Virus record (IMG/VR): IMGVR_UViG_3300046787_000200
Location: 213,090 to 277,089 of that record
Strand: one strand, 5' to 3'
DNA length: 64,000 bases
Source: a virus
The notes under the pieces are model-generated. The model was given only the letters and a program-made list of their open reading frames with translations, did no database searches and had not been told where the DNA came from. Both the position numbers and the translations under genes were made by a program. Of the stretch, positions 10,760 to 42,866 are shown piece after piece; the first letter of the stretch is position 1, and each line of letters opens with the position of its first letter.

Positions 10760-11791
10760 ATGCACTCATTTGACACTACTAACAAACGTATCGGTTTCGC
10801 CTGTAAATGGGCAGAAATCAATAAAAAAGGTGAGATTGTATCTGCCGAAGGTCTTAACACTGGTGGTACTACACAAGCTTGGGCAAAGCGTAATAGTCGT
10901 AGTGTAGTAGAAGAAAAGATTATGGATGTTGCTAAACGTAACATTATGAATACTCACGCATTGGTTAAGAAAGTTGCTACACTTGAACCCGAACTACGAA
11001 TGTTGCGTCTTACTAGTGATATGCTCAGTTTCTATACTATGGATGAATACAAAGACTTTTGGCATTCAACTGATGTTCAGAATTCGCTTGAACGTTGGAT
11101 GGCTCCTATCGGTGAAACTGCTCGGGCTAATGACGTTCGCTTGTCATTTCATCCTGACCAATTTGTAGTTTTAGCAAGTGACCGTGAAGAAGTAGTAAAT
11201 AAGAGTATAGATGAATTTGAATATCACGTTGACATGGCTAGATTTATGGGTTATGGTCAGAAGTTTCAGGATATCAAAATCAATGTTCACATTTCTGGTC
11301 GTAAAGGTCCTCAGGGCATCAGGGATGTGTATGGTAGACTTAGCCCTGAGGCACGAAACACACTAACACTAGAGAATGAGGAATACACACATGGACTTAC
11401 TGACTGCTTATCATTATCTGACCTCGTACCTACGGTCATGGACATACATCATCACTGGATTCGTGAGGGAGAATACATCGATTGTAATGACGTACTTGTT
11501 AAAAGGGTTATTGACAGTTGGCGTGGCGTACGCCCTACTTTACATTATTCTGTCAGTAGGGAAGATTGTCTTGTTGAACACTCCCGAAATGAACGTCCCT
11601 CCCATAATGCGTTGATTGAGGCAGGATACAGTAAACAGAAGCTTAGGGCACACAGTGATTACTATTGGAATGATGCAGTGAACGATTGGGCATTGACATT
11701 TATTGATAGTTTTGATATGATGTGTGAAAGCAAAGCTAAGAACTTAGCTAGCTTTAAATTACTAGAGAGATACAAATGTTTGAAAAATTAA
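10760..11791 (+). CDS. uvsE: UV DNA damage endonuclease (UvdE/UvsE family)
   Basis: RLSFHPDQFVVLAS ... INVHISGRKG ... TLENEE ... DIHHH ... RAHSDYY align with UvsE catalytic blocks. Confidence 0.75.
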   Translation: MHSFDTTNKRIGFACKWAEINKKGEIVSAEGLNTGGTTQAWAKRNSRSVVEEKIMDVAKRNIMNTHALVKKVATLEPELRMLRLTSDMLSFYTMDEYKDFWHSTDVQNSLERWMAPIGETARANDVRLSFHPDQFVVLASDREEVVNKSIDEFEYHVDMARFMGYGQKFQDIKINVHISGRKGPQGIRDVYGRLSPEARNTLTLENEEYTHGLTDCLSLSDLVPTVMDIHHHWIREGEYIDCNDVLVKRVIDSWRGVRPTLHYSVSREDCLVEHSRNERPSHNALIEAGYSKQKLRAHSDYYWNDAVNDWALTFIDSFDMMCESKAKNLASFKLLERYKCLKN

Positions 11792-24003: not shown

Positions 24004-24747
24004 ATGCCAGGATTTGTTAACGTATCACACATGACCAATCGTCAGATCCAACGCATGGGTCACGCTGATGACGACGGTGGCAATACATATCGCACAAGAA
24101 CCAACACTAAGAAAATTGTGTTGAATTACAATGCCGACGATGTATGGGGTGCGGCAGTTCAGGCACAACGTATCAATAATGCTTATGTTAAGTTGAGTAT
24201 GATTTCAGAGTCGGATCCTAATCTTACAAAACTATCCAATCGTATGATTGTTGAAAAGTTGTTAGCTGATCCATTCACTATTACCGATGAAGACCGTGAA
24301 GAAGGTAAAAAGGTTCGTGCATACTATCAAGCATTCACTTTCAAAATCTTGCAAGGCAAACGATTGAATGAGTTTGATAATACCGCAATGTTGATTGCCA
24401 ACAGGGATGCTATTACTAGCACTTATGATATTGCAGTTATTGCTAGTTTGCCCTCTGTATACGAGCGTGGTGTTAAACGTCAAACGGTTGATCAACGTAT
24501 TAGTTTTGCTAAAGGTGGCTATATTAGTGCAATTGGTAATAAAGTATCACTTACTGTTGAAGTACTGAGGTCAATTTATTCACTTAAGTGGGCTACAACC
24601 TATATTACCGGTATTACAGATGATGACCAAGTTGTATTCTTTGCATATAAGAATGAATTAGAAGTAGGTAAGATGGTTGACATTTACGGTACTGTCAAAG
24701 CACATAGAGATAATACTACCCAACTTAATCGTGTAAAGGTTATTTAA
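24004..24747 (+). CDS. hypothetical protein
   Basis: 247 aa. AAGGAG ribosome-binding site. Confidence 0.45.
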   Translation: MPGFVNVSHMTNRQIQRMGHADDDGGNTYRTRTNTKKIVLNYNADDVWGAAVQAQRINNAYVKLSMISESDPNLTKLSNRMIVEKLLADPFTITDEDREEGKKVRAYYQAFTFKILQGKRLNEFDNTAMLIANRDAITSTYDIAVIASLPSVYERGVKRQTVDQRISFAKGGYISAIGNKVSLTVEVLRSIYSLKWATTYITGITDDDQVVFFAYKNELEVGKMVDIYGTVKAHRDNTTQLNRVKVI

Positions 24748-24974
24748 TGAATACAGAATTGATTCAGAAATTGAAGTCGCAATGTATCTTCCGTGAACAA
24801 CGAGGTACTACTGCTTTTAACAGTTATATGGTTGATCGGTTTGATAGTGAAAAGTTTGCAGAACTGATTGTGAGAGAGTGTGACCGTTATGCCCGTAGTG
24901 TGTGGGAACATGGTCCGTTGTTGGGTAGGGATTTGTTAATCCATTTTGGAGTTGAGGAGATGAGTGATGATTAA
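24747..24974 (+). CDS. member of the small paralog family carrying KFAELIVREC and HFGVEE motifs
   Basis: Contains FAELIVRECDRYARS and a C-terminal HFGVEE. ATGA overlap upstream. Confidence 0.45.
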   Translation: MNTELIQKLKSQCIFREQRGTTAFNSYMVDRFDSEKFAELIVRECDRYARSVWEHGPLLGRDLLIHFGVEEMSDD

Positions 24975-25095: not shown

Positions 25096-25548
25096 ATGGG
25101 ACTTGATATGTATGCTTATGTTGCCAGCAAAAAAGGTCAACAAAGTGAGTTTTATGAAACTGCTGAGTTTGATGCAACCACTAGTGAGTTTGTAAGTAAA
25201 ACAGTTACCAAGCCATACGAAATTGCTTATTGGCGTAAGCATCCTAACTTGCATGGTTGGATGGAAAAGTTGTGGTTACGCAAGAATGGGTACCCAACAA
25301 ATTCTAATGACCAATTCATTGAGGGTAAAGAACCACCAAGCTTCAATGGTATTGAACTTGAGCTAACGTGGGATGATTTGGATGAACTTGAACGAGTTAT
25401 TCGTCATGGTCAACTTCCAAACACAGAAGGTTTCTTTTTTGGTAAGCCTTCTGATAATCGTTACTATGAACAAGACCTTGAGTTTGTAAACAACGCTAAA
25501 GCAGAAGTGTTCTTAGGATTAAAAGTATTTTATAATAGTAGCTGGTGA
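25096..25548 (+). CDS. hypothetical protein
   Basis: 150 aa ORF. Confidence 0.4.
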   Translation: MGLDMYAYVASKKGQQSEFYETAEFDATTSEFVSKTVTKPYEIAYWRKHPNLHGWMEKLWLRKNGYPTNSNDQFIEGKEPPSFNGIELELTWDDLDELERVIRHGQLPNTEGFFFGKPSDNRYYEQDLEFVNNAKAEVFLGLKVFYNSSW

Positions 25549-25988
25549 TGCATAAGTTTTATTTCGCATATGGTATGAACACAAACATTGCCGAGATGGC
25601 TAATCGTTGCCCAAAAGCAACCAGTCTCGGTAAGTGTATATTAGAGAACTTTGAGTTAAGGTTCCGTACTCATGCAGATATTGACTTAGTGCCCGGCAGT
25701 TGTATGGAAGGTGTGCTATGGGAGATCACACCTGAATGTGAAGATGCATTGGATAGATTAGAAGGCTATCCTTATTATTACAATAAGATTAATGTAGTGG
25801 TCAATGACAATATCATTGCTATGGCTTACATTATGAATCAAAAAGGTAAAGAAGAGCCTCCCGGTTTAAGTTATGAAAAGTGTTTGATTGAAGGATACAC
25901 ATCACACGGATTGAATGTTGATTGGTTGACAGAAACTATTGATGATGTTATAATGAATTATGAACTTAACGAAATACAGCAAAAATAG
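25545..25988 (+). CDS. gamma-glutamyl cyclotransferase-like (GGCT/AIG2 fold)
   Basis: YFAYGMNTN (the YGSNM block) and LDRLEGYPYYY. Confidence 0.55.
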   Translation: MMHKFYFAYGMNTNIAEMANRCPKATSLGKCILENFELRFRTHADIDLVPGSCMEGVLWEITPECEDALDRLEGYPYYYNKINVVVNDNIIAMAYIMNQKGKEEPPGLSYEKCLIEGYTSHGLNVDWLTETIDDVIMNYELNEIQQK

Positions 25989-26853: not shown

Positions 26854-27054
26854 ATGACAAATTTAGAAGTAAGAGAGAAGCTTTTGCAGGCACAAGATTT
26901 ACTATCCGATGTTTATCATTGGGCTAAGCAACCACATACCAAGTTTACTGGTATGGATATGAATAGTCAGATAGCTAGGTACACAAGCGATGCCGATTCT
27001 TCTATTAATGATTCCCTTGAGGAATTAAAACATCCCAATGGATGTATGCCTTAA
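26854..27054 (+). CDS. hypothetical protein
   Basis: 66 aa ORF. Confidence 0.35.
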   Translation: MTNLEVREKLLQAQDLLSDVYHWAKQPHTKFTGMDMNSQIARYTSDADSSINDSLEELKHPNGCMP

Positions 27055-27064
27055 GGAGTTAAGA

Positions 27065-28414
27065 ATGAGTGCAAGTTGGATTAATAAACTAAACGAATCA
27101 GATAGTCGCCTTCATAAGGAAGATGTACTCAAACAGGCATTAGAGGCAAGTGTCCTCGGTAGTGACAATGCTATCAAATTTTTGACATTGACTAAACTTA
27201 CATATAATCCCTATGTGACATTCGGTGTCAGAAAAGTTCCTGATACTGTGGGCATCGTTGATGCAGAAAATCCTTGGGAAGACTTTGATAAACTATTGTG
27301 TGAGTTAGGTTCACGAGGCTTGTCAGGTAATGCCGCACTTGATGCTATCAATGAAATGAGTGAGCGGTTTAACAGTGACGAATGGAATACATTCTGTGCT
27401 CCTGTTATTCGCAGAGACTTACGAGCAGGTATTAGCGATAAGACAATCAATAAAGTTTGTAAAAAGACTGACTACGAGATTCCTGTATTCGGTTGTCAGT
27501 TAGCAACTAACTGTGAAGGTCGCCCAGAGATGAAGGGTACTAAGCGTTTAGAGCCTAAACTTGATGGTGTGCGTGTATTGATGTTTGTGATTCCCGGTGC
27601 AGATTTCGGCATCACTACAGTTTGCTATAGTCGTAATGGTAAAGTGTTTGATAACTTTACACATATTGAACAACAAGTTAGTGATAACTTTGTTAAGATT
27701 GTTCGTGCTTGTAATGGTACCGATCAAGGTCGTAGTTTGATTGATGGCTTTGTATTAGATGGTGAAGTGATTGGTAATACATTCCAAGAACTGATGCGAC
27801 AGGCACGCCGTAAGACTGATGTACAAGCCGATGATAGTGTGTTTAATATCTTTGATATTATTCCATTAAGTGATTTCCGTCAAGGTCATTATAATGCACA
27901 ATTGCGTAAGCGTATCGCATTACTTGATAGTATGCGCCCAGTCGTTGACGAAATGCCCAATGTAGAGTTGTTGCCACACATCATGGTTGACTTAGATACT
28001 GCGGCAGGCAAGGATCAGTTCAATAGATATTGTAGAGATATGGTAGAAGCTGGTTTTGAAGGTGTGATGATTAAAGAGTTAGAAGCACCATACATCTGTA
28101 AGCGTAGCACTGATTGGATGAAATATAAACCCACATTAACGGTAGATTTGGAGGTCGTATGTGTTGAAGAAGGTACTGGTAGAAACTTGGGAAGACTTGG
28201 AGCATTGGTTTGTCATGGAGTTGACGACGGGAAAGAAATTACAGTCAATGTGGGTAGTGGCTTTAGTGATGGTGATCGAGATGATTACTGGACTAATCGC
28301 AATCTGGTCATTGGTCGAACTGCTGAAGTATTGTGTGATGTGATTACACAGAACAGGGATGGTACTTACAGTTTGCGTTTCCCTCGCTTTATTAGATTCA
28401 GGGATGACAAATGA
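27065..28414 (+). CDS. ATP-dependent DNA ligase
   Basis: Motif I EPKLDGVR (KxDGxR). Start set at the ATG after AAGGAG. Size is T4/T7-ligase-like. Confidence 0.7.
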   Translation: MSASWINKLNESDSRLHKEDVLKQALEASVLGSDNAIKFLTLTKLTYNPYVTFGVRKVPDTVGIVDAENPWEDFDKLLCELGSRGLSGNAALDAINEMSERFNSDEWNTFCAPVIRRDLRAGISDKTINKVCKKTDYEIPVFGCQLATNCEGRPEMKGTKRLEPKLDGVRVLMFVIPGADFGITTVCYSRNGKVFDNFTHIEQQVSDNFVKIVRACNGTDQGRSLIDGFVLDGEVIGNTFQELMRQARRKTDVQADDSVFNIFDIIPLSDFRQGHYNAQLRKRIALLDSMRPVVDEMPNVELLPHIMVDLDTAAGKDQFNRYCRDMVEAGFEGVMIKELEAPYICKRSTDWMKYKPTLTVDLEVVCVEEGTGRNLGRLGALVCHGVDDGKEITVNVGSGFSDGDRDDYWTNRNLVIGRTAEVLCDVITQNRDGTYSLRFPRFIRFRDDK

Positions 28415-28671
28415 ACGAAAAGATTAAACTACTTGCCAAACAGGCTGGAGGCAATCCTAACTATAAAGCATTCAGGGGCCACCCCTTACCTCCCCCACCT
28501 GACTACATCGATCCTGCTACAGTAGATTTGGCTAAGTTCGCAGAGTTGATTGTTCGGGAATGTGCCAGAGTTATTGATCGTGGCGATGGTGAAATGTCAA
28601 GTATGGATGAAACCATTTGGTGCAATGTGTGTAGAGACGATATTTTAGAACATTTTGGAGTGGAAGAATGA
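28411..28671 (+). CDS. KFAELIVREC/HFGVEE paralog family member
   Basis: FAELIVRECARVIDRG and a C-terminal EHFGVEE that contains the next ribosome-binding site and ATG. Confidence 0.45.
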   Translation: MNEKIKLLAKQAGGNPNYKAFRGHPLPPPPDYIDPATVDLAKFAELIVRECARVIDRGDGEMSSMDETIWCNVCRDDILEHFGVEE

Positions 28672-28901
28672 CTTATGAAGAAGCAAAAAATCTTAAATCG
28701 TTTAAGAACTATTGCAACTGTGGTGGTAGTGCTTGGACGATGAATGATCGTAATCCTGCAAGACCACATATGAGTTGGTGCCCACAGATTGAAGAATACA
28801 ATGAGTGGTATGATTTAGTTGGGGCAGAACTTATTGCCAAAGACAGAAAAGAAACTAAAAGTAAGTTGGGTTATAGTAGAATAGGATTGGGGAATGTATG
28901 A
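28668..28901 (+). CDS. hypothetical protein
   Basis: 77 aa, ATGA overlap. Confidence 0.4.
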   Translation: MTYEEAKNLKSFKNYCNCGGSAWTMNDRNPARPHMSWCPQIEEYNEWYDLVGAELIAKDRKETKSKLGYSRIGLGNV

Positions 28902-29125
28902 AAGTTGAGATTTGTCGGCCAGACGGAACACCATATCTAACCCTGCGTAAGGATGATAGGTTAGCTTATATCCAAATACACGATTATGATTTTTTGGGAG
29001 ATCCCATTGAGTTTAACTTTGATAGGCGAACTATCCCAGCACTGATTGATGCACTCAGCAGACTTCAGCGTGGAGAAGATAGTTCAACCATTCGCACCCA
29101 CTACTTTAATCAGGATATAGAATGA
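28898..29125 (+). CDS. hypothetical protein
   Basis: 75 aa, ATGA overlap. Confidence 0.4.
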   Translation: MKVEICRPDGTPYLTLRKDDRLAYIQIHDYDFLGDPIEFNFDRRTIPALIDALSRLQRGEDSSTIRTHYFNQDIE

Positions 29126-29433
29126 TACACATTACTGAAGAAGGCGGAGTGATTCGCAATGGTTTGAATTTTTACCCGCTAACGGATAAAAGCAGTTTTG
29201 GGTTTAGGTTTCGTTATGGATCAAAAATCTTTTGGTTTCGGTATAGCCGAATCACTCAACGCTGGACCATTAAAAACAGCACCAATCTGGTTGATAGTTA
29301 AAAATTTACTTTGGTATTGCCCTAAAATTTACTTTGGTATTGCTCCGGTATAAGAGTAATACTTTTTGCTGACTTGACACAAAATCCATTTGGTTGTATA
29401 ATATACACATAGACAGACAAAAAGGAGAGAAAA

Positions 29434-29637
29434 ATGCGTAGTATCAAAGAAGTCAAAACAGAACTTGAAAAACTCCGTGAAGAATACGAAAGTAAAGTTT
29501 CCTTGCTCAAAACTGAAATAGTAAGTATCCGTGAAAGTCGTGGATATAAACTCAAAGTACCCAAGTATGAAACTTATTACGAACCAGGACGCTCAACAAT
29601 GCCCACACCCTCAGGTGGTATGGGTGCAGGATATTAA
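29434..29637 (+). CDS. hypothetical protein
   Basis: 67 aa. AAAGGAGAGAAAAATG ribosome-binding site. Confidence 0.4.
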   Translation: MRSIKEVKTELEKLREEYESKVSLLKTEIVSIRESRGYKLKVPKYETYYEPGRSTMPTPSGGMGAGY

Positions 29638-29639
29638 GG

Positions 29640-29669
29640 TTGACAATAAATGAGTATTATGTTATAATA
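29640..29669 (+). promoter_or_regulatory. consensus early promoter with conserved leader
   Basis: TTGACA at 29640, TATAAT at 29664 (18-nt spacer). Leader AGAATCTTAGACAGTAAAG. Confidence 0.5.
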
Positions 29670-29701
29670 GAATCTTAGACAGTAAAGAAAAGGACTAACA
29701 A

Positions 29702-29941
29702 ATGAACAAACGAATTAAAGAACTTGCTGAACAATGTACTACAATCAATGATTCTACAACTATTCCAGTTGATAAGGATTTTGACTATGAAAAGTTCGCC
29801 GAGTTGATTATTGCTGAATGTATTGATGTATTCAGTAAAGATTTACCGGATACTACAAGCCCGGATTATCAACTAGGTAGCCTTCCAGAAGTCGTCAATC
29901 GTATCGCTAATGTAGCAGAACATTTCGGAGTTGAACTATGA
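29702..29941 (+). CDS. KFAELIVREC/HFGVEE paralog family member
   Basis: KFAELIIAECIDVF and a C-terminal EHFGVEL with the overlapping next ATG. Confidence 0.45.
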   Translation: MNKRIKELAEQCTTINDSTTIPVDKDFDYEKFAELIIAECIDVFSKDLPDTTSPDYQLGSLPEVVNRIANVAEHFGVEL

Positions 29942-30309
29942 TCGTTCCGGATTTAATCAAAGCAGTTGAACAAGGATTCAGGAAACATACTATGATTGCC
30001 GCAAAAGAAGCCAAAGCACTCTACCACTATAGTGGTGCAGAGGTTGAACAGTTTCTAAAAACTGAAGTTGAGCCTCGAGTGACTGAAGCCGCAAAAGGTG
30101 GTAAGAGGTCGGCTATGATTCATCTTGGCTCAAAAGGTCCGTACGAATATCTTAGTCAATTAGTTACTCCACAACAAATGGCAGCGGTAGCCAGATTGAT
30201 TGAATTGGGCTATAGTGCTCAGATTCAATTGTACGATGAAAAGTATGTTCCAGGCGGTCCAGCTGACGGATCTTTTGAAGCATTCTATGGCATTCAAATT
30301 GGGTGGTAA
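29938..30309 (+). CDS. hypothetical protein
   Basis: 123 aa ORF. Confidence 0.4.
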   Translation: MIVPDLIKAVEQGFRKHTMIAAKEAKALYHYSGAEVEQFLKTEVEPRVTEAAKGGKRSAMIHLGSKGPYEYLSQLVTPQQMAAVARLIELGYSAQIQLYDEKYVPGGPADGSFEAFYGIQIGW

Positions 30310-30312
30310 ATT

Positions 30313-30456
30313 ATGAATTGGCAAGAAGATCCTGATAATCCATTGAAAGAAAAGTTCGCCGAGTTGATTGTTCGGGAATGTGCGTTAGTTATACAAAAGA
30401 AAGTTGGACCAAAGTCTGCCTTAGATGTATTAGAACATTTCGGAGTTGAAGAATGA
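30313..30456 (+). CDS. KFAELIVREC/HFGVEE paralog (47 aa)
   Basis: Not in the track. KEKFAELIVRECALV ... LEHFGVEE, then an overlapping ATG. Confidence 0.4.
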   Translation: MNWQEDPDNPLKEKFAELIVRECALVIQKKVGPKSALDVLEHFGVEE

Positions 30457-30587
30457 GTTGCGATATTATTCCACCACCACCAAGACAGAGATGTGAAGGT
30501 TGTGGGCCGTTAATTAATGGGAAACATACAAGTGTTGTTTGCAAATTTTTACAATGGGTTGATAAACATTTCGGAGTTAAAGAATGA
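30453..30587 (+). CDS. small Cys-rich paralog (44 aa) ending in HFGVKE
   Basis: Not in the track. CEGCGPLINGKHTSVVC, and a C-terminal KHFGVKE that carries the next start. Confidence 0.35.
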   Translation: MSCDIIPPPPRQRCEGCGPLINGKHTSVVCKFLQWVDKHFGVKE

Positions 30588-30814
30588 ACGAACGAATTAG
30601 AGAACTTTTTAAAAAGGCTGGCGGAAAAACATCCACCCGTAATCTCGCAAGCAACCCTGTCCAAGTGGTAAAAACACATGAACTTTGGGATGACCGTATT
30701 GAAAAGTTCGCCGAGTTGATTGTGAAAGAATGTATTGATATTGCTGAACAAACAAGATACGATGGTAAAGTAGTAGCCGAGCGAATCAAGTTTGTTTTCG
30801 GAGTTGAAGAATGA
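30584..30814 (+). CDS. KFAELIVREC/HFGVEE paralog family member
   Basis: KFAELIVKECIDIAEQ and a C-terminal FVFGVEE. Confidence 0.45.
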   Translation: MNERIRELFKKAGGKTSTRNLASNPVQVVKTHELWDDRIEKFAELIVKECIDIAEQTRYDGKVVAERIKFVFGVEE

Positions 30815-31011
30815 ACGAAAATATAAAGGCAGGGGCAAACATTCACGCAGGTGATGGTGGGTATAGTGAAGGCACACAAGAAGCATACGATGAGTTTGTA
30901 AAGATCCGCAACTATCAAGTTATTTGCCCTAAGTGTGGAGTAGATAGACTTAAAGTTGATTGTCCCAATATCAATAGATTAGATTGTGGTATTAAGGTAG
31001 AAGCACAATGA
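30811..31011 (+). CDS. small zinc-ribbon protein
   Basis: CPKCGVDRLKVDCPNINRLDCG. Shares a module with the C-terminus of the next ORF. Confidence 0.4.
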   Translation: MNENIKAGANIHAGDGGYSEGTQEAYDEFVKIRNYQVICPKCGVDRLKVDCPNINRLDCGIKVEAQ

Positions 31012-31334
31012 AAGAACTGATTAGAAAGTTTGAAAAAGAATCTGGCCTTGAAATCTACGGACTCGGAGCGAGACGAGAAAAGTGGGAACACTGTATGGAA
31101 AAGTTCACTGAGTTGGTTGTTCGGGAATGTGTTTCTATCTGTAAAGATAAAGAACGCCCAAATCTATATGGTATTAAAGAAGTTGAAGTAGCGATTAAAC
31201 AACATTTTGGTATTATTGAACCTAAAGGCTGGGTCTGCCCCAAATGCAAGGCTGATAGAACTAAGATTCCTTGCCCATTAGGTTTTGGAGCACAAGTAGA
31301 TGGTCGTTGCCCTATGACTGCGGAGGCACAATGA
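31008..31334 (+). CDS. fusion-type paralog: KFTELVVREC core plus a C-terminal zinc-ribbon module
   Basis: KFTELVVRECVSICKD ... HFGIIEP ... CPKCKADRTKIPCP ... RCP. Confidence 0.45.
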   Translation: MKELIRKFEKESGLEIYGLGARREKWEHCMEKFTELVVRECVSICKDKERPNLYGIKEVEVAIKQHFGIIEPKGWVCPKCKADRTKIPCPLGFGAQVDGRCPMTAEAQ

Positions 31335-31507
31335 TTAAAGTATTATTTGCATTTGTATTACTATTTGCTGTATTTTATGCGGGTATTACACTTGCCCGAA
31401 AAATGACAGGTAAAGAGGCATTAGCCTTGACAAAAATTGCAGGATACAGTATACTATCTTCATTACTGACACTTGCAGTATTAATCTCAATCGTTGTAAT
31501 TTTTTAA
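31331..31507 (+). CDS. small two-helix membrane protein
   Basis: Track ORF trimmed to the ATG after GGAGG (ATGA overlap). Hydrophobic VLFAFVLLFAVFYAGITL and LLTLAVLISIVVIF. Confidence 0.4.
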   Translation: MIKVLFAFVLLFAVFYAGITLARKMTGKEALALTKIAGYSILSSLLTLAVLISIVVIF

Positions 31508-31603
31508 GGACTATAATGTTTCCTGAATTTCTTGTGAGACCATTATATTTTATTCTTGGTTTCGTATTTTGTTTCTTTCTTTTTGTAAAAGGTATTATCT
31601 AAA

Positions 31604-32416
31604 ATGAATCGTTCTATTAAACTCTCTCTTATCGCTATCGCAGTTGCATTGACTAGTGCTTGCACCCGTATTGAAACTGGTGAGGTCGGTGTTCGTGTTG
31701 GCTTTGACAAACAAGTCAAGCCCGGTGAACTTGAACCCGGTAGCTTCAACCAAGTGCTTGTCGGTGATGTGTTGACCTTCCCATACAAGGATGTTAATAT
31801 CACTATTGACAATATGACTCCTGTTGCGAAAGACAACAGCACTATGAAAGACCTTGATGCGGTGATTGTTTACAACATCAACAAGAATCAAGCCGCTGAA
31901 CTGTATTCTACCAAGAACCGCAGTTTCCACGCTGACTTCAAAGGCGACACTTACTTGATGTATAACTACATTGTTCAGAATGCCCGTAATGCTATCTACA
32001 AGTCTGCACGAAAGTATGAAGCATTGGATATGGCAGACAATCGCACTGAGATGGAGAATTACATCAAAGATGAAATCACACGCAACCTTGCAGAAGAAAA
32101 ACTAGATGGTAGTATCACTATCACACAGGTTATGATTCGTACTGTAGTTCCAAGTGATACAGTTGTTGCAAGTGCAAATGATTTGGTTCGTAGTAAAAAC
32201 GAATTGAAGCAAAAAGAAGTTGAAGTTAAAACTGCTGAAGCAGAGGCCCGTCGTATTGCGGCTCTAGCACAAAATGCAGGTGCTATTCAATATATGGATG
32301 CTCAGGCTCGTATGAAGCAAGCAGATGCGGCACTTGAAACTGCTAAGGCTATTGCATCATTCAAGGGTAATACTCTTGTGATTGGTGCTGGAACTAATGT
32401 CAATGTAGGTAAATAA
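31604..32416 (+). CDS. SPFH/Band-7 (stomatin/HflK-like) domain lipoprotein
   Basis: Lipobox LTSAC. IETGEVGVRVGF ... DLDAVIVYNI is SPFH-like. Coiled-coil C-terminus. Confidence 0.55.
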   Translation: MNRSIKLSLIAIAVALTSACTRIETGEVGVRVGFDKQVKPGELEPGSFNQVLVGDVLTFPYKDVNITIDNMTPVAKDNSTMKDLDAVIVYNINKNQAAELYSTKNRSFHADFKGDTYLMYNYIVQNARNAIYKSARKYEALDMADNRTEMENYIKDEITRNLAEEKLDGSITITQVMIRTVVPSDTVVASANDLVRSKNELKQKEVEVKTAEAEARRIAALAQNAGAIQYMDAQARMKQADAALETAKAIASFKGNTLVIGAGTNVNVGK

Positions 32417-32545
32417 ATAGCATGTACCGACTATTCTATAAAATAGGATATGAGGTCGGTACATGCCTCTCATTATTATTGAGCAGGCAATCAATCACAA
32501 TGTGGGCTATGCTCACAATTTTTTATATTTTAAAAGGAAATTAAA

Positions 32546-32863
32546 ATGGCAACAAGAGTAATGATGAAGAATACTAAAACAGGTATTCGCAAAGAAGGTT
32601 ATTTTGGATTCAGTTGGACATACTTGTTCTTTGGATTCTGGGTACCATTGTTTAGAGGTCACTTCCCAATGGCAGGTATTCACCTAGTCATTAGTTTCAT
32701 CAGTGTCTTTATGTTTGGAATTCCACAACTTGTTCTTGCTTTCTTCTTCAATAAGTTTTATACTCTAAGACTCATTGAAGATGGTTATGAATTTGATGAT
32801 GATGAACAATTAGTAAAAACTGCATCTACCATCTTAAATATCGCACAACCTACAAAATCATGA
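32546..32863 (+). CDS. membrane protein
   Basis: 105 aa with two hydrophobic helices. AAAGGAAATTAAAATG ribosome-binding site. Confidence 0.45.
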   Translation: MATRVMMKNTKTGIRKEGYFGFSWTYLFFGFWVPLFRGHFPMAGIHLVISFISVFMFGIPQLVLAFFFNKFYTLRLIEDGYEFDDDEQLVKTASTILNIAQPTKS

Positions 32864-32977
32864 TGACCTTGAACGAATTCTCTATGTTTGTCGCTGGAGT
32901 TATCTGGGGCATCTTTATTATTAAGCCGTTATGGGAAATAGGGGCAAAGATTTACAAGAACGCTAAGGAGGCGCAAA

Positions 32978-33253
32978 ATGGTAACAATCGTTAAACATGA
33001 GTGGCATCAACATGATCGCCAATACGCAATTGAACTTGATGAGGCACTATTAAGTGAAATCTATCCTGATTTGGATGAAGATGAAATCGCACAGAAACTT
33101 GCTGATATTGAATCAGGTGAAGTTGATTACGAAGAAGTTATCAACGATGCCTACGAGAATGATGTAGAGATTGAATGGGACTTTCAATATGATGATTGTT
33201 GGACTGACCGCAAAGGTGGTTATGATGTTACATATGAATTGGTCAATAAATGA
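32978..33253 (+). CDS. small highly acidic protein
   Basis: 91 aa, about one third D/E. AAGGAGG ribosome-binding site. Confidence 0.45.
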   Translation: MVTIVKHEWHQHDRQYAIELDEALLSEIYPDLDEDEIAQKLADIESGEVDYEEVINDAYENDVEIEWDFQYDDCWTDRKGGYDVTYELVNK

Positions 33254-36711: not shown

Positions 36712-37914
36712 ATGTCAACAGAAAACAAACTCAATCATTGCTCATTTTGTGATAAACACAAAGATGATGTTAAGAAACTAATTGTTAGCGAAGAAGTGGC
36801 AATTTGTAGTGATTGCGTAGAACTATGCAATTCACTTATGTTAGATGATGATGGTAAAAGTGAATTTGTATCGGAAGATACTGTATCATATGATCCAGAA
36901 TCAATTAAAGATTATCTTGACCAACATGTTATCGGACAAGATAATGCTAAAAAAGTGTTAAGTGTTGCTATTGCTAATCACTATAAACGTATCAACCGGC
37001 CACCAAAAGACTTAGAAATCTCTAAGGGTAATGTGTTGCTTGTTGGTCCTACTGGCTCAGGTAAAACATTGCTTGCTAAGACAGTTGCCAAATATCTCAA
37101 AGTGCCCTTTGTTGTAGCAGATGCGACAAGTATCACTGAAGCTGGTTATGTAGGTGATGACGTTGAATCCATGATTAGTATGTTACTCAATGCCGCTGGC
37201 GGTGATGTTAAACTGGCCGAGCGTGGTATTGTGTTCATTGATGAGATTGACAAGATTGCACGTAAAGGCGAATCTGCAAGTATCACCCGTGATGTGTCAG
37301 GTGAGGGTGTTCAGCAAGCTTTACTGAAAATGGTTGAAGGCACTGTATGTCGTATTCCAGCAGGTGGTGGACGTAAACATCCCGGTGGTGATATGATTGA
37401 GATTAACACTAAGAATATCTTATTCATTGCCGGTGGTGCATTTGTTGGGTTGAAAGATATTATTAAAAGTAGAGAAACTGGATCTAGTATCGGGTTCGGG
37501 GCTAAAATCAAAGATAAGAGCATAGAGGGCAATCTAAGCAACGTTAGCCCAGACGATTTAGTTAAATTCGGTATGATTCCTGAATTCATCGGACGTTTCA
37601 CTACTACTGTAAACGTAGAGGATTTGAGCAAAGAAGATTTGGTAAAGGTATTGACTGGTATTAAGAATAACTATATCGACCAATACAAGTATTTGCTGAG
37701 TTTAGACAACATTGAGTTAAACTTCACAGAAGATGCATTGGATCAGTTAGCAGAGAATACACTAGCATTGAAAACAGGTGCTCGTGGATTGCATACTGAG
37801 ATTGAGCGTGTATTGATGACACATATGTTTAATACTAAGAAATACCGTGAAAATAAAATTCTAAACATAAATATAGATAGAAAACAAATTTTGGAGCCAA
37901 AAGTATTAGTATGA
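36712..37914 (+). CDS. clpX: ATP-dependent Clp protease ATP-binding subunit ClpX
   Basis: N-terminal C4 zinc domain (CSFC ... CSDC), Walker A LLVGPTGSGKTLLAKT, and ClpX-wide similarity over 400 aa. Confidence 0.9.
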   Translation: MSTENKLNHCSFCDKHKDDVKKLIVSEEVAICSDCVELCNSLMLDDDGKSEFVSEDTVSYDPESIKDYLDQHVIGQDNAKKVLSVAIANHYKRINRPPKDLEISKGNVLLVGPTGSGKTLLAKTVAKYLKVPFVVADATSITEAGYVGDDVESMISMLLNAAGGDVKLAERGIVFIDEIDKIARKGESASITRDVSGEGVQQALLKMVEGTVCRIPAGGGRKHPGGDMIEINTKNILFIAGGAFVGLKDIIKSRETGSSIGFGAKIKDKSIEGNLSNVSPDDLVKFGMIPEFIGRFTTTVNVEDLSKEDLVKVLTGIKNNYIDQYKYLLSLDNIELNFTEDALDQLAENTLALKTGARGLHTEIERVLMTHMFNTKKYRENKILNINIDRKQILEPKVLV

Positions 37915-38126
37915 GAGGTAGAAAGGTTTTAGTTCAGGACGGAAACGTAGACAAAGCATTGCGAAAATTTAAAAAAATTATCGCAGACTATGGTACCTTG
38001 CAAGAGGTTCGTGACCGTCAAGAATTTGTAAAGCCTACTATCAAACGCAAATTAGCAAGAAGCCAGGCGAAAAGACGCTGGAACAAGTATTTGCGTGACC
38101 AAAGTCTTCCTAAGAAAAACTTTTAA
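37911..38126 (+). CDS. rpsU: ribosomal protein bS21
   Basis: 71 aa. KVLVQDGNVDKALRKFKK ... EVRDRQEFVKPTIKRK aligns with bacterial S21. ATGA overlap with clpX. Confidence 0.8.
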   Translation: MRGRKVLVQDGNVDKALRKFKKIIADYGTLQEVRDRQEFVKPTIKRKLARSQAKRRWNKYLRDQSLPKKNF

Positions 38127-38232
38127 GTTCCAAAATAGTAGATTTTTTTGCATATTTTTATTATAATAAATATGTATTCAGATGCCGATGGTCGGGTCTG
38201 AAATATGTCATCTTGCTTAAAAGGAGAAAAAA

Positions 38233-38685
38233 ATGACAAATCAATTAACCCTTCGTTCCTTAGACATTCCGTCTATTCATAAGTTCTCAGTCGGTTTCGA
38301 CCGTATGTTTGACGAACTAACTCGTAATCAAGCGCAACAATCAAACTACCCCCCATATAACATTGTACAAATCAATGAAGATGAATATATGATTAGTGTT
38401 GCTGTTGCAGGTTTCGGGCCTGATAATCTATCAGTTACAAAAGATAAAAACTTCCTAGTAATTGAAGGTAATCATGCATTGAATAGTATTAAAACTAACG
38501 ATGCAGATCCTGTATATCTACATAAGGGTATCAGTGAGCGTAACTTCCGACGTGAGTTCCGTTTAGCGGACCATGTAGAGATTGAGAACGCACATTTAGA
38601 ATTGGGTATCTTAAGTATTCACTTGAAACGTGAAGTTCCTGAAGAACAAAAGCCCAAGTCTATTGCAATTACCTACACTAAATAA
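38233..38685 (+). CDS. ibpA: small heat-shock protein (IbpA/IbpB, Hsp20 family)
   Basis: SVGFDRMFDEL ... YPPYNIVQINEDEYMISVAVAGF, i.e. the alpha-crystallin domain. Confidence 0.85.
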   Translation: MTNQLTLRSLDIPSIHKFSVGFDRMFDELTRNQAQQSNYPPYNIVQINEDEYMISVAVAGFGPDNLSVTKDKNFLVIEGNHALNSIKTNDADPVYLHKGISERNFRREFRLADHVEIENAHLELGILSIHLKREVPEEQKPKSIAITYTK

Positions 38686-38748
38686 TATAATAGTGTTTCA
38701 TTAAAACAAGTGTGCGGGGCAACTCGCACACATAACTAAAAGAAAATT

Positions 38749-39054
38749 ATGTCTAAAACTGATACTAAAATTAAAATCAAACCTAATCTTGCACTAGCAG
38801 AACCCCCATTGTATAAAATCATTTATATCAATGATGAAGTAACCAGTATGCAATTTGTAGTAAACAGTTTGATTAGTTATTTTAATTATAATGAAGATAC
38901 TGCAACTTCATTGACAGAGAATATTCATCATCAAGGTAGTGCAGTTGTTGCAGTTTTACCGTACGAAATTGCAGAGCAAAAGGGAATTGAAGTAACACTT
39001 GATGCACGTAGCAAGGGTTTTCCACTACAAGTCAAAGTAGAAGCTGAGGCTTAA
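38749..39054 (+). CDS. clpS: Clp protease adaptor ClpS (N-degron recognin)
   Basis: PPLYKIIYINDEVTSMQFVV ... HHQGSAVVAVLPYEIAE matches the ClpS core. Confidence 0.8.
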   Translation: MSKTDTKIKIKPNLALAEPPLYKIIYINDEVTSMQFVVNSLISYFNYNEDTATSLTENIHHQGSAVVAVLPYEIAEQKGIEVTLDARSKGFPLQVKVEAEA

Positions 39055-39752
39055 ACTTCTATATCAATGCGTTTAGGCCAATACGGTCTACGTCCGTAAT
39101 ATGAATTGTTGATATAATTAATATTTTCTATTGTTGTATCAACATTTTTATCATAACTTCCATATATCCAAGTAGATACTTTATGTTCAGAATCATGACC
39201 TAGTATCTGTGTTAACGGGATTTGATCACTTATCATATCTGGTTGTTCCCCAAAATATAAATTAGGTCCCGGAACTGAATGTGTAACTACTATTATCTTT
39301 TTTACATCTAAATGTAATTGTAGTTTTGATAGGCTTGATCCTATGTAAGATATATCTTCTACATGTTGTCCATGTAGGTGTAATTTCTCTAATGTTGACG
39401 GTGTATCAATGTTACTACCATACCATCCGTTAGTTCCCAATATAGCTATACCGTTTATAACGACAACATGTCTATGTAGGAACGCAACATTGTTTATTGA
39501 TTTACATATTTGATTTATTTCAAGGTATCTGTTTTTTACTAGATGAAGCGAATCATGTTCTAATGATCCTGCAATGTAAAAAATACCCTGATAAAATTTT
39601 GATAAATGAAGCAGGGTTTGATGTATTACTCGCAATTCACTGCTTATATTTCCAGCAATTATTAGGTATAGGCTTGTTGCCTTATTTTCCCAATTAAAGC
39701 TATCTTCAGCGCCTAAATTTAAGTCGCTGATAACATCAAACCCTATATTCAT
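39051..39752 (-). CDS. calcineurin-like metallophosphoesterase (weak motifs)
   Basis: 233 aa on the minus strand. LIIAGNIS, GSLEHD and VVTHS blocks. TAATG-coupled to the upstream minus-strand gene. Confidence 0.45.
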   Translation of the reverse strand: MNIGFDVISDLNLGAEDSFNWENKATSLYLIIAGNISSELRVIHQTLLHLSKFYQGIFYIAGSLEHDSLHLVKNRYLEINQICKSINNVAFLHRHVVVINGIAILGTNGWYGSNIDTPSTLEKLHLHGQHVEDISYIGSSLSKLQLHLDVKKIIVVTHSVPGPNLYFGEQPDMISDQIPLTQILGHDSEHKVSTWIYGSYDKNVDTTIENINYINNSYYGRRPYWPKRIDIEV

Positions 39753-40030
39753 TAAGCTTGAGTAGTTGGCTTAGCTTTTGGTGCTCTTGGCTTAGCTGGT
39801 GCTTTAGCCTTAGGTGCAGCCGGAGCTTTTGGCTTGGCTGGAGCTTTTGGCTTTGCAGGTGCTTTTGCTTTAGCTTTTGCCGGCGCCTTTTCAGCAACCG
39901 GAACAGGTGCTTCTACAGCCAATGGAATCGGCGTAGTTGCGGCTGGCTCTGGAACTTTGTATGGGGCAGATGGGGCTGCCTCTACTGGTTTAGCTGAAAA
40001 ACCAAACAAATTCTTTAAAAAATCTAACAT
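39752..40030 (-). CDS. Ala/Pro/Lys-rich (histone H1/AlgP-like KAPAKP repeat) protein
   Basis: 92 aa with repeats of KAPAKPKAPAKP. AGGAGA ribosome-binding site on the minus strand. Confidence 0.5.
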   Translation of the reverse strand: MLDFLKNLFGFSAKPVEAAPSAPYKVPEPAATTPIPLAVEAPVPVAEKAPAKAKAKAPAKPKAPAKPKAPAAPKAKAPAKPRAPKAKPTTQA

Positions 40031-40128
40031 TTCTGTCTCCTAAACATATATTTACTCGGGTTGGAAATCCGTATATTTTTTCCGTAAAGTACGCATTGTT
40101 ATGGGCAATATAGTATCATAAATACATT

Positions 40129-40620
40129 ATGTTCAGAAACGCAAATTTAGCCGAACTTATGCGTGAGGAGTTGCCTCCGATAGCATATCAAAAACGCCTT
40201 CTTTATAGAACGGACTATGATGAAGTTGTAGCACTTTATCGCCTGATTAATAAAACTATTTTCAACAATAAACTTATCATGCCTGAAATTGAGGTTATGC
40301 CACGTTGTAGAAAATACTGGGGAATGTGCTATGGTGCATTAAAAATGCCCACTAAGAATAAAAGCTTTTGCAAAATACGTATGATGGATAAATGGTATTG
40401 TCGTCAATGGTTAATTAATGTATTAGCACATGAAATGTGTCATCAATATCAATGGGATGTTGAGGGAGTTCGTAGACTTAATCGAGGACAACAACCTATA
40501 ATGAGTCATGGTCCTAGTTTCTTTGTATTCAGAGACAAATTAAAGAAACATGGCATAGCATTAAAAAGCGCACATAGCAAACGTAAGTGGTTTCACCATC
40601 AAAACTTATTTAAGTGTTGA
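40129..40620 (+). CDS. SprT-like zinc metalloprotease domain protein
   Basis: HEMCH (HExxH motif) in NVLAHEMCHQYQW. Confidence 0.45.
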   Translation: MFRNANLAELMREELPPIAYQKRLLYRTDYDEVVALYRLINKTIFNNKLIMPEIEVMPRCRKYWGMCYGALKMPTKNKSFCKIRMMDKWYCRQWLINVLAHEMCHQYQWDVEGVRRLNRGQQPIMSHGPSFFVFRDKLKKHGIALKSAHSKRKWFHHQNLFKC

Positions 40621-40638
40621 ATCTGATAAATACTCATT

Positions 40639-42207
40639 ATGCGTGATTTAATAACATTACTTGAAAACCTAGCTATGGCAGAAGCCGCAAAGAAAGATCC
40701 TAATGCTCCTTCTACACTCTTTGCTAATGGCTTAACACCTACACAAATTAATAAAGAGCCTGCAAGATGGAACTTATTGATTAATAAAATAAAGACTAAT
40801 AAACCATTTGTTGATAACTACACAGGTGAGGATATCTATATCAAACCAAGTGAAGTCAATCGTCTTACACAACTTAAAGATGAAGGTAAGTTTAAAGGGG
40901 AAAAAGTTACTATTATAACTAAAGATGGTAGAGAAATCCCAATGGCTCAGTTAGCCAAAAATGAAGAATTTGGCGGCAGTACTAAAGAATCTGTTTTACT
41001 AAAGCCATCACTAATTAAAATCACTGATAGAGATATACCTGCGTCTGACTTGTATGAAACAATTGAAAACAATCAAGTATTAGCAAGCACCGATTACGGG
41101 CAAGTAGTCCAACAACTTGCTACATATATTGTATCCGGTGAGTATGTTCAGATGCCAGAACAATATACAACAAAAGAAAAAGAAAAAGAACGCAAAGCTA
41201 TTGTTGATTATGCAGGTGAGTATTTAGGTGTGTTAGCTTTGTTATATGACCGTAGTCGTTTCCCGAGAAAACGTCAGTTCCAAGAATGGCTTGGTGGTGA
41301 TATGGGTTCATTGGTATTAAATTTCCCTAGTGCGGCTAACAATAACATTGCAGATAGTTATGCTACTATCACTAATCCAGGTACAAGTCATAGCTTGAAC
41401 ATTTCAAGTAAAGGAACCGGTGGCGGAGCGGCGCCTGCAGTATCTGGATTGAAAGTTAGTGAAGATATTAAACGTAATCCTAAATTACGAAACGCAGTAA
41501 AACTTATTGAATTATGCCAAGCAGGTAAAGATGCTAGTGGTCCAAGCACAATTGTTCAAGCATTTAAGATTATGGATTTCTTATTTAAAGTGAATCCAAG
41601 TAGCATTCCTAAAATATGGCACAAGTTTTTGCCATTCGAAAGTAAAGCTCCAAAGATACTACAACAAAGTATTGATAGCATAAACAACGGCACTTCATTA
41701 CCATCGTCATATCAACCACTGCTTAATGCAGTAAACAGTGAAACTGCTACTGATGGTGGTAAGCTGGTATATCTCATTAAGAAAACTATTGCACATAGTG
41801 TAAATGAGGGTAATGCAATTCCTGAATTTGCTGATACTATCTTACAAGTTTTAGAAATGAACTTCATCCAACAATATACAGATTATCATAGCAACGGTGA
41901 ACTAACCTTTGCAACTCAGTGGCCATCTAAGTTGTCAGGTGTCGTTACATTAGAAAACAAGTCAAGTGCAAAAGAACCAAGTAGTGCTGGTTTTAGCTTC
42001 AAGTTGGGTAGAAATGCACAAGATTATGATGATCCAGGTCCAGACGGTGCGACCGGAGATGTTATTCAGCCAGATGAATACGGAGATGATGTGGGTGCGG
42101 CTGCGGCAGATATTGTTGAACCAAAAATCAACAACAAAAATGTCAGGGCATTCGCCAAACCTGAACCCGAAGCTGATATCGGCATCGGTCGTAAGAAGCG
42201 TAAATAA
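40639..42207 (+). CDS. hypothetical protein (522 aa) with a basic C-terminal tail
   Basis: Long ORF with diverse composition, ending GIGRKKRK. Confidence 0.5.
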   Translation: MRDLITLLENLAMAEAAKKDPNAPSTLFANGLTPTQINKEPARWNLLINKIKTNKPFVDNYTGEDIYIKPSEVNRLTQLKDEGKFKGEKVTIITKDGREIPMAQLAKNEEFGGSTKESVLLKPSLIKITDRDIPASDLYETIENNQVLASTDYGQVVQQLATYIVSGEYVQMPEQYTTKEKEKERKAIVDYAGEYLGVLALLYDRSRFPRKRQFQEWLGGDMGSLVLNFPSAANNNIADSYATITNPGTSHSLNISSKGTGGGAAPAVSGLKVSEDIKRNPKLRNAVKLIELCQAGKDASGPSTIVQAFKIMDFLFKVNPSSIPKIWHKFLPFESKAPKILQQSIDSINNGTSLPSSYQPLLNAVNSETATDGGKLVYLIKKTIAHSVNEGNAIPEFADTILQVLEMNFIQQYTDYHSNGELTFATQWPSKLSGVVTLENKSSAKEPSSAGFSFKLGRNAQDYDDPGPDGATGDVIQPDEYGDDVGAAAADIVEPKINNKNVRAFAKPEPEADIGIGRKKRK

Positions 42208-42220
42208 TTACCAAAAACAT

Positions 42221-42249
42221 TTGACTTTAACATAAACTTCTGTTATAAT
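42221..42249 (+). promoter_or_regulatory. sigma70-like promoter TTGACT-N17-TATAAT upstream of clpP
   Basis: TTGACT at 42221, TATAAT at 42244. Confidence 0.5.
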
Positions 42250-42278
42250 AGTGGAAACATTATTTTTAAAGGAAGTTT

Positions 42279-42866
42279 ATGTCTCTAGTACCAATCGTTA
42301 TTGAACAAACAAGCAAAGGTGAACGTAGCTATGATATCTATAGCCGTCTAATGCGTGACCGTGTTATTCTGCTTGAAGGTGAAGTTCACGACCAAATGGC
42401 AAATCTAATTGTTGCTCAACTACTATTCCTCGAAAGTGAAGGTGACAAAGATATCTCAATGTATATCAATAGCCCAGGTGGTAGTGTAACTGCTGGTATG
42501 GCAATCTATGATGCTATGCAATTCATTAAACCCGATGTACAAACAATCGTTATGGGTCAAGCTTGTTCAATGGGTTCACTACTCGCACAAGCAGGAGCTA
42601 AAGGTAAACGTATGATGTTGCCTAATGCACGACACATGATTCACCAACCCTCAGGTGGCGCACGTGGTATGCAAAGTGATATCGAAATCAGCTATAAAGA
42701 AATTACTTACTTGAAGAAACGCCTAACCGATATCTATGTCAAGCATAACAGTGCAGGAAAGACTTATGAAGAATTTGAACGAGACATGGACCGTGATAAG
42801 TTCATGTCGGCTGAAGAAGCATTAGCTTACGGCTTGATTGATAAAATTATTGAAAAGAGAGAATAA
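42279..42866 (+). CDS. clpP: ATP-dependent Clp protease proteolytic subunit ClpP
   Basis: [19 protein letters not shown]-type N-terminus. Catalytic-region blocks [23 protein letters not shown] and HQPSGG. Confidence 0.9.

Follow-up and report, generated by a model that had tools for sequence, protein, structure and literature searches.

The 64,000-nucleotide stretch of DNA analysed here (positions 213,090 to 277,089 of the IMG/VR record IMGVR_UViG_3300046787_000200; henceforth the window) is part of a 352,012-bp JGI metagenome contig of a large phage and carries, behind the gene for a DNA ligase, an array of small paralogous genes assembled from constant and variable parts. The layout of such a gene comprises an N-terminal motif (N motif), a variable N cassette, a core motif, a variable C cassette and a tail motif. 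Conservation of the three motifs extends to their DNA, the N and C cassettes assort independently of each other, and near relatives of the phage differ in the number and order of these genes and in their intragenic joints, with the breakpoints lying on the motifs. We consider it likely that this is a translationally coupled array of recombining genes with codon-fixed motifs, drawn from a large uncharacterised family. The array is not peculiar to this phage and is one instance of a very large family.

A large family of small phage proteins

The original prediction, made from the letters of the window and its open reading frames (ORFs), had counted at least eight members in this array. The ORFs it listed are all present on the plus strand at the positions it gave (as are all genes and motif sites described below, unless stated otherwise), but the count was too high: six of them are paralogs, one is an ORF that shares only the tail, and one is an ORF with a zinc ribbon. 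In an all-against-all comparison the six paralogs, starting at 24747, 28411, 29702, 30313, 30584 and 31008, find each other by BLASTP with pairwise E-values of 7e-12 to 6e-4. Invariant in their alignment are M1, the (E)KFAEL(I/V)(V/I)xEC core and, in the tail, FG, and the segments common to the paralogs read MNERIKEL, EKFAELIVREC and HFGVEE-stop. A six-frame scan of the 64 kb window with a hidden Markov model (HMM) of the family recovered no further members.

The first of the six (24747-24974, 75 residues; supported by HMM and BLASTP) is a stable ortholog that lies outside the array, after a gene for a 247-residue protein, and its subtype makes up 78 of the 120 top database matches. Within the array, the alignment places a member of 86 residues with a proline-rich N cassette and a cysteine-rich C cassette at 28411-28671, the start of which overlaps the stop of the ligase gene (ATGA), and one of 79 residues at 29702-29941, which ends in HFGVEL-stop and where CTATGA still supplies the ATG. 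The short member at 30313-30456 (47 residues) is without the N motif and N cassette and matches positions 31-81 of the HMM only (E 4e-18), while that at 30584-30814 (76 residues) is nearest to the family consensus. The last (31008-31334, 108 residues) carries a fused Cys4 zinc ribbon at its C-terminus (31230-31334). An internal HFGIIE in this member (31203-31220) has the glycine codon GGT and hence no GGAG, and two relatives (P0016 and P0050) have the same type of body ending in HFGVEE without the ribbon. The ORF at 30453-30587 encodes a cysteine-rich non-member of 44 residues bearing the tail cassette KHFGVKE-stop. As had been proposed, it is linked to the family by this tail only, the match being confined to its last ~12 residues (HMM E=2.3; BLASTP E 0.07-5). 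The CPKCxxDRxKxxCP module does occur both fused, in 31008-31334, and free, in the 66-residue ORF at 30811-31011 (local BLASTP E=2e-6), which combines an N-motif-like start (ATGAACGAAAAT, MNENIK) with its zinc ribbon (30919-31011).

Database searches reveal the extent of the family: of 8,000 candidates scored, 7,985 match at E<=1e-3, and 7,472 representatives of 50%-identity clusters match (795 at E<=1e-10). Across representatives MNERIKELAEQAG, EKFAELIVREC and IKEHFGVEE are near-invariant, and in 127 of 138 proteins FGV is followed by only one or two more residues. The idea that the motifs are chance low-complexity matches can be dismissed, as they recur in thousands of database proteins. Nor is this an already characterised phage family: at the cut-offs used there was no match in Pfam, PHROGs v4, NCBIfam or the sequences of the PDB (best E 0.012-0.5, to unrelated families), and none of the 120 top database relatives has a Pfam domain. 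Searches of GenBank phages by megablast and tblastn gave a single weak tblastn match, to an uncultured Manatee Spring contig, and no mention of the family came up in literature searches on the motifs and on comparable systems. Two candidate assignments were rejected, namely an XkdN-like tail chaperone (E 0.013-0.13, below the cut-offs and restricted to the N helix) and the label "predicted naringenin-chalcone synthase" given by JGI to a 76-residue protein, which is an obvious mis-annotation. Bacterial and archaeal species genomes yielded 15 matches only, all in bins of freshwater metagenome-assembled genomes from a mixture of phyla; most likely they represent phage contigs placed in the wrong bin and so do not permit assignment of a host. 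We are thus dealing with a very large undescribed family of small (~75 residues), mostly acidic proteins (median isoelectric point 4.96) of uncultured freshwater phages. Multi-copy arrays are common in it, with 56 of 80 IMG/VR loci that were fetched having 2-10 copies within 12 kb.

Three motifs conserved at the nucleotide level

The consensus DNA of the N motif is ATG AAC GAA CGA ATT AAA GAA CTT, that of the core motif GAA AAG TTC GCC GAG TTG ATT GTK CGG GAA TGT, and that of the tail motif CAT TTC GGA GTT GAA GAA TGA. We compared the codons used in these motifs with background usage in 264 unique genes from 91 loci, which were picked by a degenerate peptide pattern and did not include the window. 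In the N motif asparagine is encoded by AAC in 90% of cases (background 41%), arginine by CGA in 94% (13%) and leucine by CTT in 84% (16%). In the core, lysine is AAG in 89% (38%), alanine GCC in 83% (21%), glutamate GAG in 87% (27%) and leucine TTG in 93% (24%); in the tail, histidine is CAT in 96% (59%), glycine GGA in 96% (23%) and valine GTT in 93% (36%). Outside the motifs the same genes have codon usage near background. The core 23-mer (the first 23 nt of 30349-30381) and the junction 28-mer TTCGGAGTTGAAGAATGAACGAACGAAT each occur without a mismatch in at least 120 IMG/VR stretches, and in 2,114 of 2,529 pairs of loci that are similar by blastn the similarity is confined to the family genes. 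Hence, beyond the shared peptides that had been claimed, the conservation of each of the three motifs reaches down to the nucleotides, which are almost unchanged in hundreds of uncultured freshwater phages.

The gene at 24747 is vertically stable, and in its core (24849-24881; AAGTTTGCAGAACTGATTGTGAGAGAGTGT) the peptide KFAELIVREC is kept while the codons have drifted, which indicates that constraint on the protein is not enough by itself to fix the DNA. Between this gene and its ortholog in the syntenic relative L081 there are 13 synonymous and 2 non-synonymous codon differences, as expected of real, constrained genes.

In the array the 33-nt core motif is found at 28531-28563 (AKFAELIVREC), 29789-29821 (EKFAELIIAEC), 30349-30381 (the exact family consensus, GAAAAGTTCGCCGAGTTGATTGTTCGGGAATGT), 30701-30733 (EKFAELIVKEC) and 31098-31130 (EKFTELVVREC). 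A possible RNA hairpin in the core motif (TTCGCCGA...TCGGGAA) was rejected: at -7 kcal/mol (z -1.2) it is no better than shuffled sequence, and it is lost in the K/A variants.

Cassette shuffling within and between genes

The middles of these genes had been described as hypervariable, and both segments between the motifs indeed differ freely in sequence and length. When the variable segments of 505 unique genes were clustered separately at 70% identity, 51 of 308 N clusters had several C clusters as partners (up to 35), and 57 of 345 C clusters had several N clusters (up to 8). The modular shuffling that the original prediction had read from the window is thereby seen across the family, each kind of cassette combining with multiple partners.

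Comparison with close relatives locates the joints. L081 is syntenic with the window (~80% nucleotide identity in shared genes) and has nothing between the ligase gene and the conserved downstream genes; because it is empty there, the region from the ligase gene (27038-28414) to those genes, 28414-32975, which contains the array and a Band_7 gene, is a variable slot. Two further loci, L222 and L223, share the slot between ligase (85%) and Band_7, with the gene for a 58-residue membrane protein and that for Band_7 showing 80-89% nucleotide identity. In L223 its four members and six other ORFs are arranged in another order, and in L222 it holds at least two members. The N cassette of 28411, GGNPNYKAFRGHPLPPPPDYIDPATVDL, is joined to three different C cassettes: its own in the window, that of 30584 in L223 and that of 29702 in L222. 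In the last case L222:166-319 corresponds to window 28410-28563 and L222:287-440 to window 29789-29942, and the two tracts overlap exactly on the 33-nt core. The core at 28531-28563 is thus marked as a crossover site, since the homology of L222 and L223 to 28411 ends at 28563-28564; likewise, homology resumes at 29789, the start of the next core, in L222, and that of L223:1985-2110 ends at 31133, beside the core of 31008. The N cassette of 31008 runs in L223 into another C cassette and has no zinc ribbon there; the homolog of 30811 in that locus has an additional N-terminal part of 62 residues, and the homolog of 28668 occupies another position in the array.

Recombination at the gene junctions had been anticipated, and these rearrangements within one slot, with homology breaking on the conserved motifs, agree with it; that shuffling is also intragenic, at the KFAELIVREC core, goes further. 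The L223-type joint (N_B|C_z) is present in four independent assemblies, two of them by MEGAHIT (k=119 and k=141). Since the motif tracts (15-23 nt) are shorter than these k values, mis-assembly is unlikely as a general explanation.

The tail motif as a candidate coupling cassette

The tail consensus has a set geometry: GGAG is followed, after 7 nt, by an ATG whose A closes the final codon and whose TG opens the stop. As the final codon need only end in A for the ATGA overlap, E, K, L and Q are all permitted as final residue. The proposal that the tail codons double as Shine-Dalgarno sequence and start of the following gene extends well to other loci, where 201 of 232 genes (87%) have the ATGA overlap and 96% the GGA codon that gives GGAG. 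In the window GGAGTTGAAGAATGA is found exactly at 30442-30456 and 30800-30814, and with one or two bases changed at 28657-28671, 29927-29941 and 30573-30587; at all five sites the TGA overlaps with the start codon (ATG) of the ORF that follows. These sites lie in the tail cassettes EHFGVEE-stop (28648-28671; GGAG, 7 nt and the ATG of ORF 28668), EHFGVEL-stop (29918-29941; with the ATG of ORF 29938) and the exact consensus GAACATTTCGGAGTTGAAGAATGA (30433-30456; with the ATG of ORF 30453), in a complete head-to-tail junction where the tail of 30453 meets the N motif of 30584 (ATGAACGAACGAATTAGAGAACTT; 30564-30607), and in the junction of the 30584 tail (FVFGVEE-stop) with the N-motif-like start of 30811 (30791-30834). 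Altogether nine ATGA overlaps, each with a purine-rich motif upstream, chain the ORFs of the array. The combination of stop/start overlap and upstream Shine-Dalgarno sequence is that of translationally coupled pairs, and we infer that these genes, too, are coupled.

The tail is not restricted to the family: its DNA ends 61 non-members among 470 unique ORFs, including membrane proteins, which suggests that gene ends move independently of gene content. Loci with such non-member tails include L005, L006, L010, L038, L040 and L275, the last with a rhodanese-like protein of 138 residues that also starts with MNERI. Separately, we observed that both zinc-ribbon modules end in EAQ-stop (30996-31011 and 31319-31334) with the same GCACAATGA overlap onto the next start, which looks like a second, smaller type of reusable junction.

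Taken together, the motifs probably serve as short patches of homology for recombination between paralogs and between co-infecting phages. Such recombination would produce new combinations of cassettes, changes in copy number, and fusions or transfers of tails onto unrelated ORFs, and, through coupling by termination and reinitiation, the tail would provide the following gene with its ribosome-binding site and start.

Predicted structure and possible function

Structure prediction, which had been suggested as a check, was carried out with AlphaFold2 for two members with different cassettes, and both models place helices on the three motifs. The model of 30584 (me2945458f956; pLDDT 84.8) has a helix at residues 3-11, a beta hairpin at 15-33 and helices at 36-56 and 61-72, and that of 28411 (ma82380798f48; pLDDT 82.1) helices at 3-11, 40-57 and 65-81; the N cassette forms the beta hairpin in the former and a proline-rich loop in the latter. 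The three motifs are accordingly predicted to be the three helices of a small scaffold, with the cassettes displayed between them. Among solved and annotated structures the confident models have no structural relative of known fold. In a subfamily an ECxxxC after the core and a Cx6-7HFG before the tail co-occur (57 of 740 members versus 15.6 expected), the member at 28411-28671 carrying REC...WCNVCRDDILEHFG; these cysteines may form a Cys3His metal site or disulfides that tie helix 2 to helix 3.

The surroundings of the array hint at the time of its expression. Between 8367 and 60973 the window has 14 perfect TTGACA-N17-TATAAT promoters, all on the plus strand, as opposed to 0.14 expected; they include sites at 23073, 23343, 23666, 29640, 43367, 44281 and 44587, and two, at 29374 and 29640, lie within the array. 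This match to the sigma-70 consensus suggests that the array genes are transcribed early by the host RNA polymerase. We would tentatively see their products as early-expressed binders of variable host targets, of defence or takeover, that are diversified by exchange of cassettes. The resemblance to anti-defence or host-takeover arrays raised in the original prediction is an analogy, to which the early promoter context and the small, acidic nature of the proteins lend such support as there is. It is likewise possible, if somewhat short of probable, that the codon-fixed motifs are kept as recombination linkers, permitting a combinatorial mixing of two hypervariable binding cassettes on a three-helix scaffold across freshwater phage lineages.

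Alternative explanations

Several observations weigh against seeing the motifs as linkers and the products as diversified binders. The exact identity tracts among the paralogs of the window are only 15-23 nt, which does not exceed, and may fall short of, what efficient homologous recombination usually requires, and the mechanism proposed for the tight hold on the nucleotides of the core motif is a putative one. The loci used are incompletely independent, 57 of 82 falling into one single-linkage component (at least 500 nt of shared flanking similarity). Some of the chimeric joints come from short-k Logan assemblies, in which the repeated motif could mis-join contigs. No relative in sequence or structure points to a target for the putative binders, and it is from the promoter consensus that the timing of expression is predicted. 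Finally, GGA is kept in 11 of 13 genes that have an internal FGV and no start following it, which makes selection for a Shine-Dalgarno sequence inseparable from general conservation of the motif; loss of GGA would be expected at an internal FGV, as is indeed seen in 31008 of the window (GGT) but mostly not at other loci.

The last point bears equally on a first alternative, which we regard as unlikely, namely that the N motif and tail are mainly a shared translation-initiation region on which a common regulator acts at GGAG...ATGAACGAACGAAT, with the shuffling as a by-product. Such a regulator might be a small RNA, a translational repressor of the RegA type or a nuclease that, like RegB, cuts at GGAG. 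The conservation around the ATG, which begins ~12 nt before it and extends to 24 nt after it, the lack of structure in the junction, the tail cassette on the 61 unrelated ORFs and the presence in this phage of other conserved regulatory cassettes (promoters with a shared leader) all speak for it. However, nothing starts at those internal tails in which GGA is retained, the search for a structure or Rfam match found none and no regulator was identified, and the 33-nt core is equally codon-fixed in the middle of the gene, where it cannot be an initiation region.

A second, improbable alternative takes the termini as protein signals, either a leader for packaging into the capsid or degrons for ClpS, ClpX and ClpP of the phage itself. 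It has a precedent in Ip1-3 of T4, hotspot-encoded proteins that share only an N-terminal leader and block different GmrSD enzymes (PMC12373910); moreover, the window encodes ClpX, ClpS and ClpP 5-11 kb downstream, and the termini do recur on ORFs that are otherwise unrelated. Yet a peptide signal needs no fixed synonymous codons, the last residues are dictated by the ATGA overlap (codons for E, K, L and Q that end in A), the promoters look early rather than late, and no similarity to known leaders or degrons was detected.

Still less probable is that the motifs are recognised or cut by a homing or site-specific enzyme that is carried by the phages and drives gene conversion of the flanking cassettes. 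While exact 23-28-mers are spread across many phages and an HNH/NUMOD3 gene lies ~2.4 kb from an array in L221, no such enzyme is consistently linked to the arrays or adjoins this one, a UvdE-type repair endonuclease at a distance of 17 kb is the one nuclease that turned up in the window, and the motifs are without dyad symmetry. We give hardly any credence to the view that these are ordinary diverged paralogs with motifs required by the protein, or that the shuffling is an assembly artefact: the motifs do map onto the three predicted helices, short repeats can confuse de Bruijn assemblers and the 24747 lineage keeps its peptide while its codons drift, but that very drift sets protein constraint apart from fixation of DNA, codon fixation lies far above background across 91 loci, and the N_B|C_z joint recurs in independent assemblies, including MEGAHIT contigs with k beyond the motif tracts. 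No single rival accounts for the mid-gene core motif together with the codon fixation.

Comparison with known systems and significance

The closest parallels to a recombining array with codon-fixed motifs are found in T4-like phages. There, the promoter-early stem-loop (PeSL) cassettes are likewise short nucleotide-conserved repeats in hyperplastic early regions and act as points of homologous exchange between unrelated small genes, leading to insertions, deletions and replacements among close relatives (Arbiol et al. 2010, PMC2839356; Comeau et al. 2014, PMC4122927). The array shares with them the placement of joints, which in L222 and L223 fall on the 33-nt core and the gene junctions. It differs in that PeSLs are intergenic units of terminator and promoter and hence transcriptional, whereas the linkers here lie within coding sequence, the junction linker being translational (Shine-Dalgarno sequence, ATG and the first eight codons), and the third sits mid-gene, shuffling two halves of one protein. 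Moreover, the stem-loop is wanting, as core and junction fold like shuffled sequence (z -1.2 to +1.1); a true PeSL-like unit at 29336-29402 is separate from the three motifs. The best functional analogy is offered by the ip genes of T-even phages, small, diverse hotspot genes with a shared N-terminal leader, each of which inhibits a different variant of a host defence enzyme (PMC12373910). The array genes recall them in being clustered in a hotspot and in having a short conserved N-terminal segment (here MNERIKEL) on otherwise diverse products, but share in addition the core, the tail and the predicted fold. The Ip leaders target virion proteins to the capsid, while here no evidence of packaging was found, the promoter context looks early and MNERIKEL showed no similarity to the T4 leader. 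By analogy, the array works like the PeSLs and may function like the ip genes, having the defining features of neither.

Short conserved sequences at the boundaries of modules are said to have been proposed as directing homologous recombination by Susskind and Botstein in their modular theory of 1978, and by Clark and colleagues in 2001 for lambdoid boundary sequences. Such boundary sequences lie between the genes or modules of temperate phages, with sparse evidence, as against the linkers here, which are 24-33 nt long, codon-fixed, present in thousands of copies and in one case intragenic. Overlaps of the ATGA type with an upstream in-frame Shine-Dalgarno sequence are common in coupled genes. 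What sets the family apart is the reuse of one coupling cassette of 15-24 nt with its peptide tail on hundreds of genes, including unrelated ones. Diversity-generating retroelements (DGRs) fail as a model on the feature tested, as the cassettes (~8-40 residues) differ in length and cannot be aligned between clusters, unlike DGR variable regions, whose length is constant and whose differences from the template repeat are confined to adenines; no reverse transcriptase turned up among ~40 ORFs of the window scanned generally, which was not a systematic screen of the window ORFs. The integron model likewise fails on the feature tested, since the junction DNA has no significant hairpin and no structure, attC-like or other (-1.8 kcal/mol, z 0.2). 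Polymorphic toxins (PMC3482391) resemble the family in joining a constant part to many alternative variable parts through recombination with neighbouring cassettes, but are large, secreted bacterial toxins accompanied by immunity genes, as opposed to phage products of 50-110 residues with no signature of toxin or immunity.

The thousands of sequence clusters without an entry in Pfam, PHROGs, NCBIfam or PDB amount to a large blind spot. For the debate on whether phage mosaicism is guided by conserved homology or arises by random illegitimate joining, the motifs provide candidate linkers that are defined to the base, can be recoded synonymously and exist in thousands of copies. If they are indeed linkers, they would be the clearest natural example of those envisaged by the modular theory, within as well as between genes, and would constitute a recombination-based generator of diversity for host-interaction proteins in which genes move with their own translational start cassette. 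The tail is also a case of dual coding, in that FGVEE, which has spread to unrelated genes, seems to owe its form largely to the start codon and ribosome-binding site encoded along with it. Should the products be diversified binders of host defence or takeover targets, the family would be a natural library in which each small scaffold has two loops that can be exchanged. On the practical side, spurious homology and mis-assemblies seeded by these motifs are to be expected in freshwater viromes.

Genomic context

By megablast the phage has no close relative in GenBank, and its DNA ligase is ~32% identical to those of Bacillus and Vibrio phages. Scans of the window for Rfam families and transfer RNAs gave no matches.

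Several of the promoters are followed by a conserved leader of ~45 nt (AGAATCTTAGACAGTyAAmTAAAGGA...ACAAAATG), and the 29-mer at 23073 recurs unchanged at 43367; it appears that promoter and leader are reused together by the phage as whole cassettes. One of these, a perfect sigma-70 promoter with the conserved leader, lies upstream of 29702 (29640-29668, plus strand), and its region is 80% identical to L081:8531-8595 (67 nt) and 75% to L081:8924-8996. The PeSL-like composite mentioned above (29336-29402, plus strand) consists of a hairpin with a T-run (29336-29363) and a perfect promoter (29374-29402), and ahead of it a 20-nt direct repeat occurs twice (29301-29320 and 29324-29343).

Interspersed with the members are small ORFs outside the family. 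Three of these (28668-28901, 28898-29125 and 29122-29301) are joined by ATGA overlaps (28668-29301) and have no family matches. Another, of 67 residues, lies between the two promoters (29434-29637), and one of 123 residues (29938-30309) belongs to phrog_5321, of unknown function. On the minus strand, an unsupported antisense ORF of 165 residues (30389-30886) runs across three family genes and is probably a by-product of the codon pattern of the plus strand.

To the right, the array is bordered by the 58-residue membrane ORF (31331-31507), whose start overlaps the stop of 31008 and which is kept as neighbour in L222 and L223. The right-hand neighbours as a whole (31331-32994) are membrane-associated, comprising in addition an SPFH/Band_7 lipoprotein (31604-32416) and small membrane ORFs at 32546-32863 and 32860-32994. 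Counterparts of the 58-residue ORF, of Band_7 and of the 44-residue ORF at 32860-32994 were identified in L222, none being matched there for 32546-32863; in L223 the 58-residue ORF and Band_7 were identified.

The early-looking region also contains genes for the UvdE-type UV-damage endonuclease (10760-11791) and a gamma-glutamyl cyclotransferase of the GGACT/AIG2 type (25545-25988). Further downstream, a block devoted to protein quality control (36712-42866) codes for a ClpX-like ATPase (36712-37914), ribosomal protein S21 (37911-38126), Hsp20 (38233-38685), ClpS (38749-39054), an SprT-like protease (40129-40620) and ClpP (42279-42866). In L081 the S21 gene is followed by one for HSP70, and the stretch fetched for L223 stops at S21.

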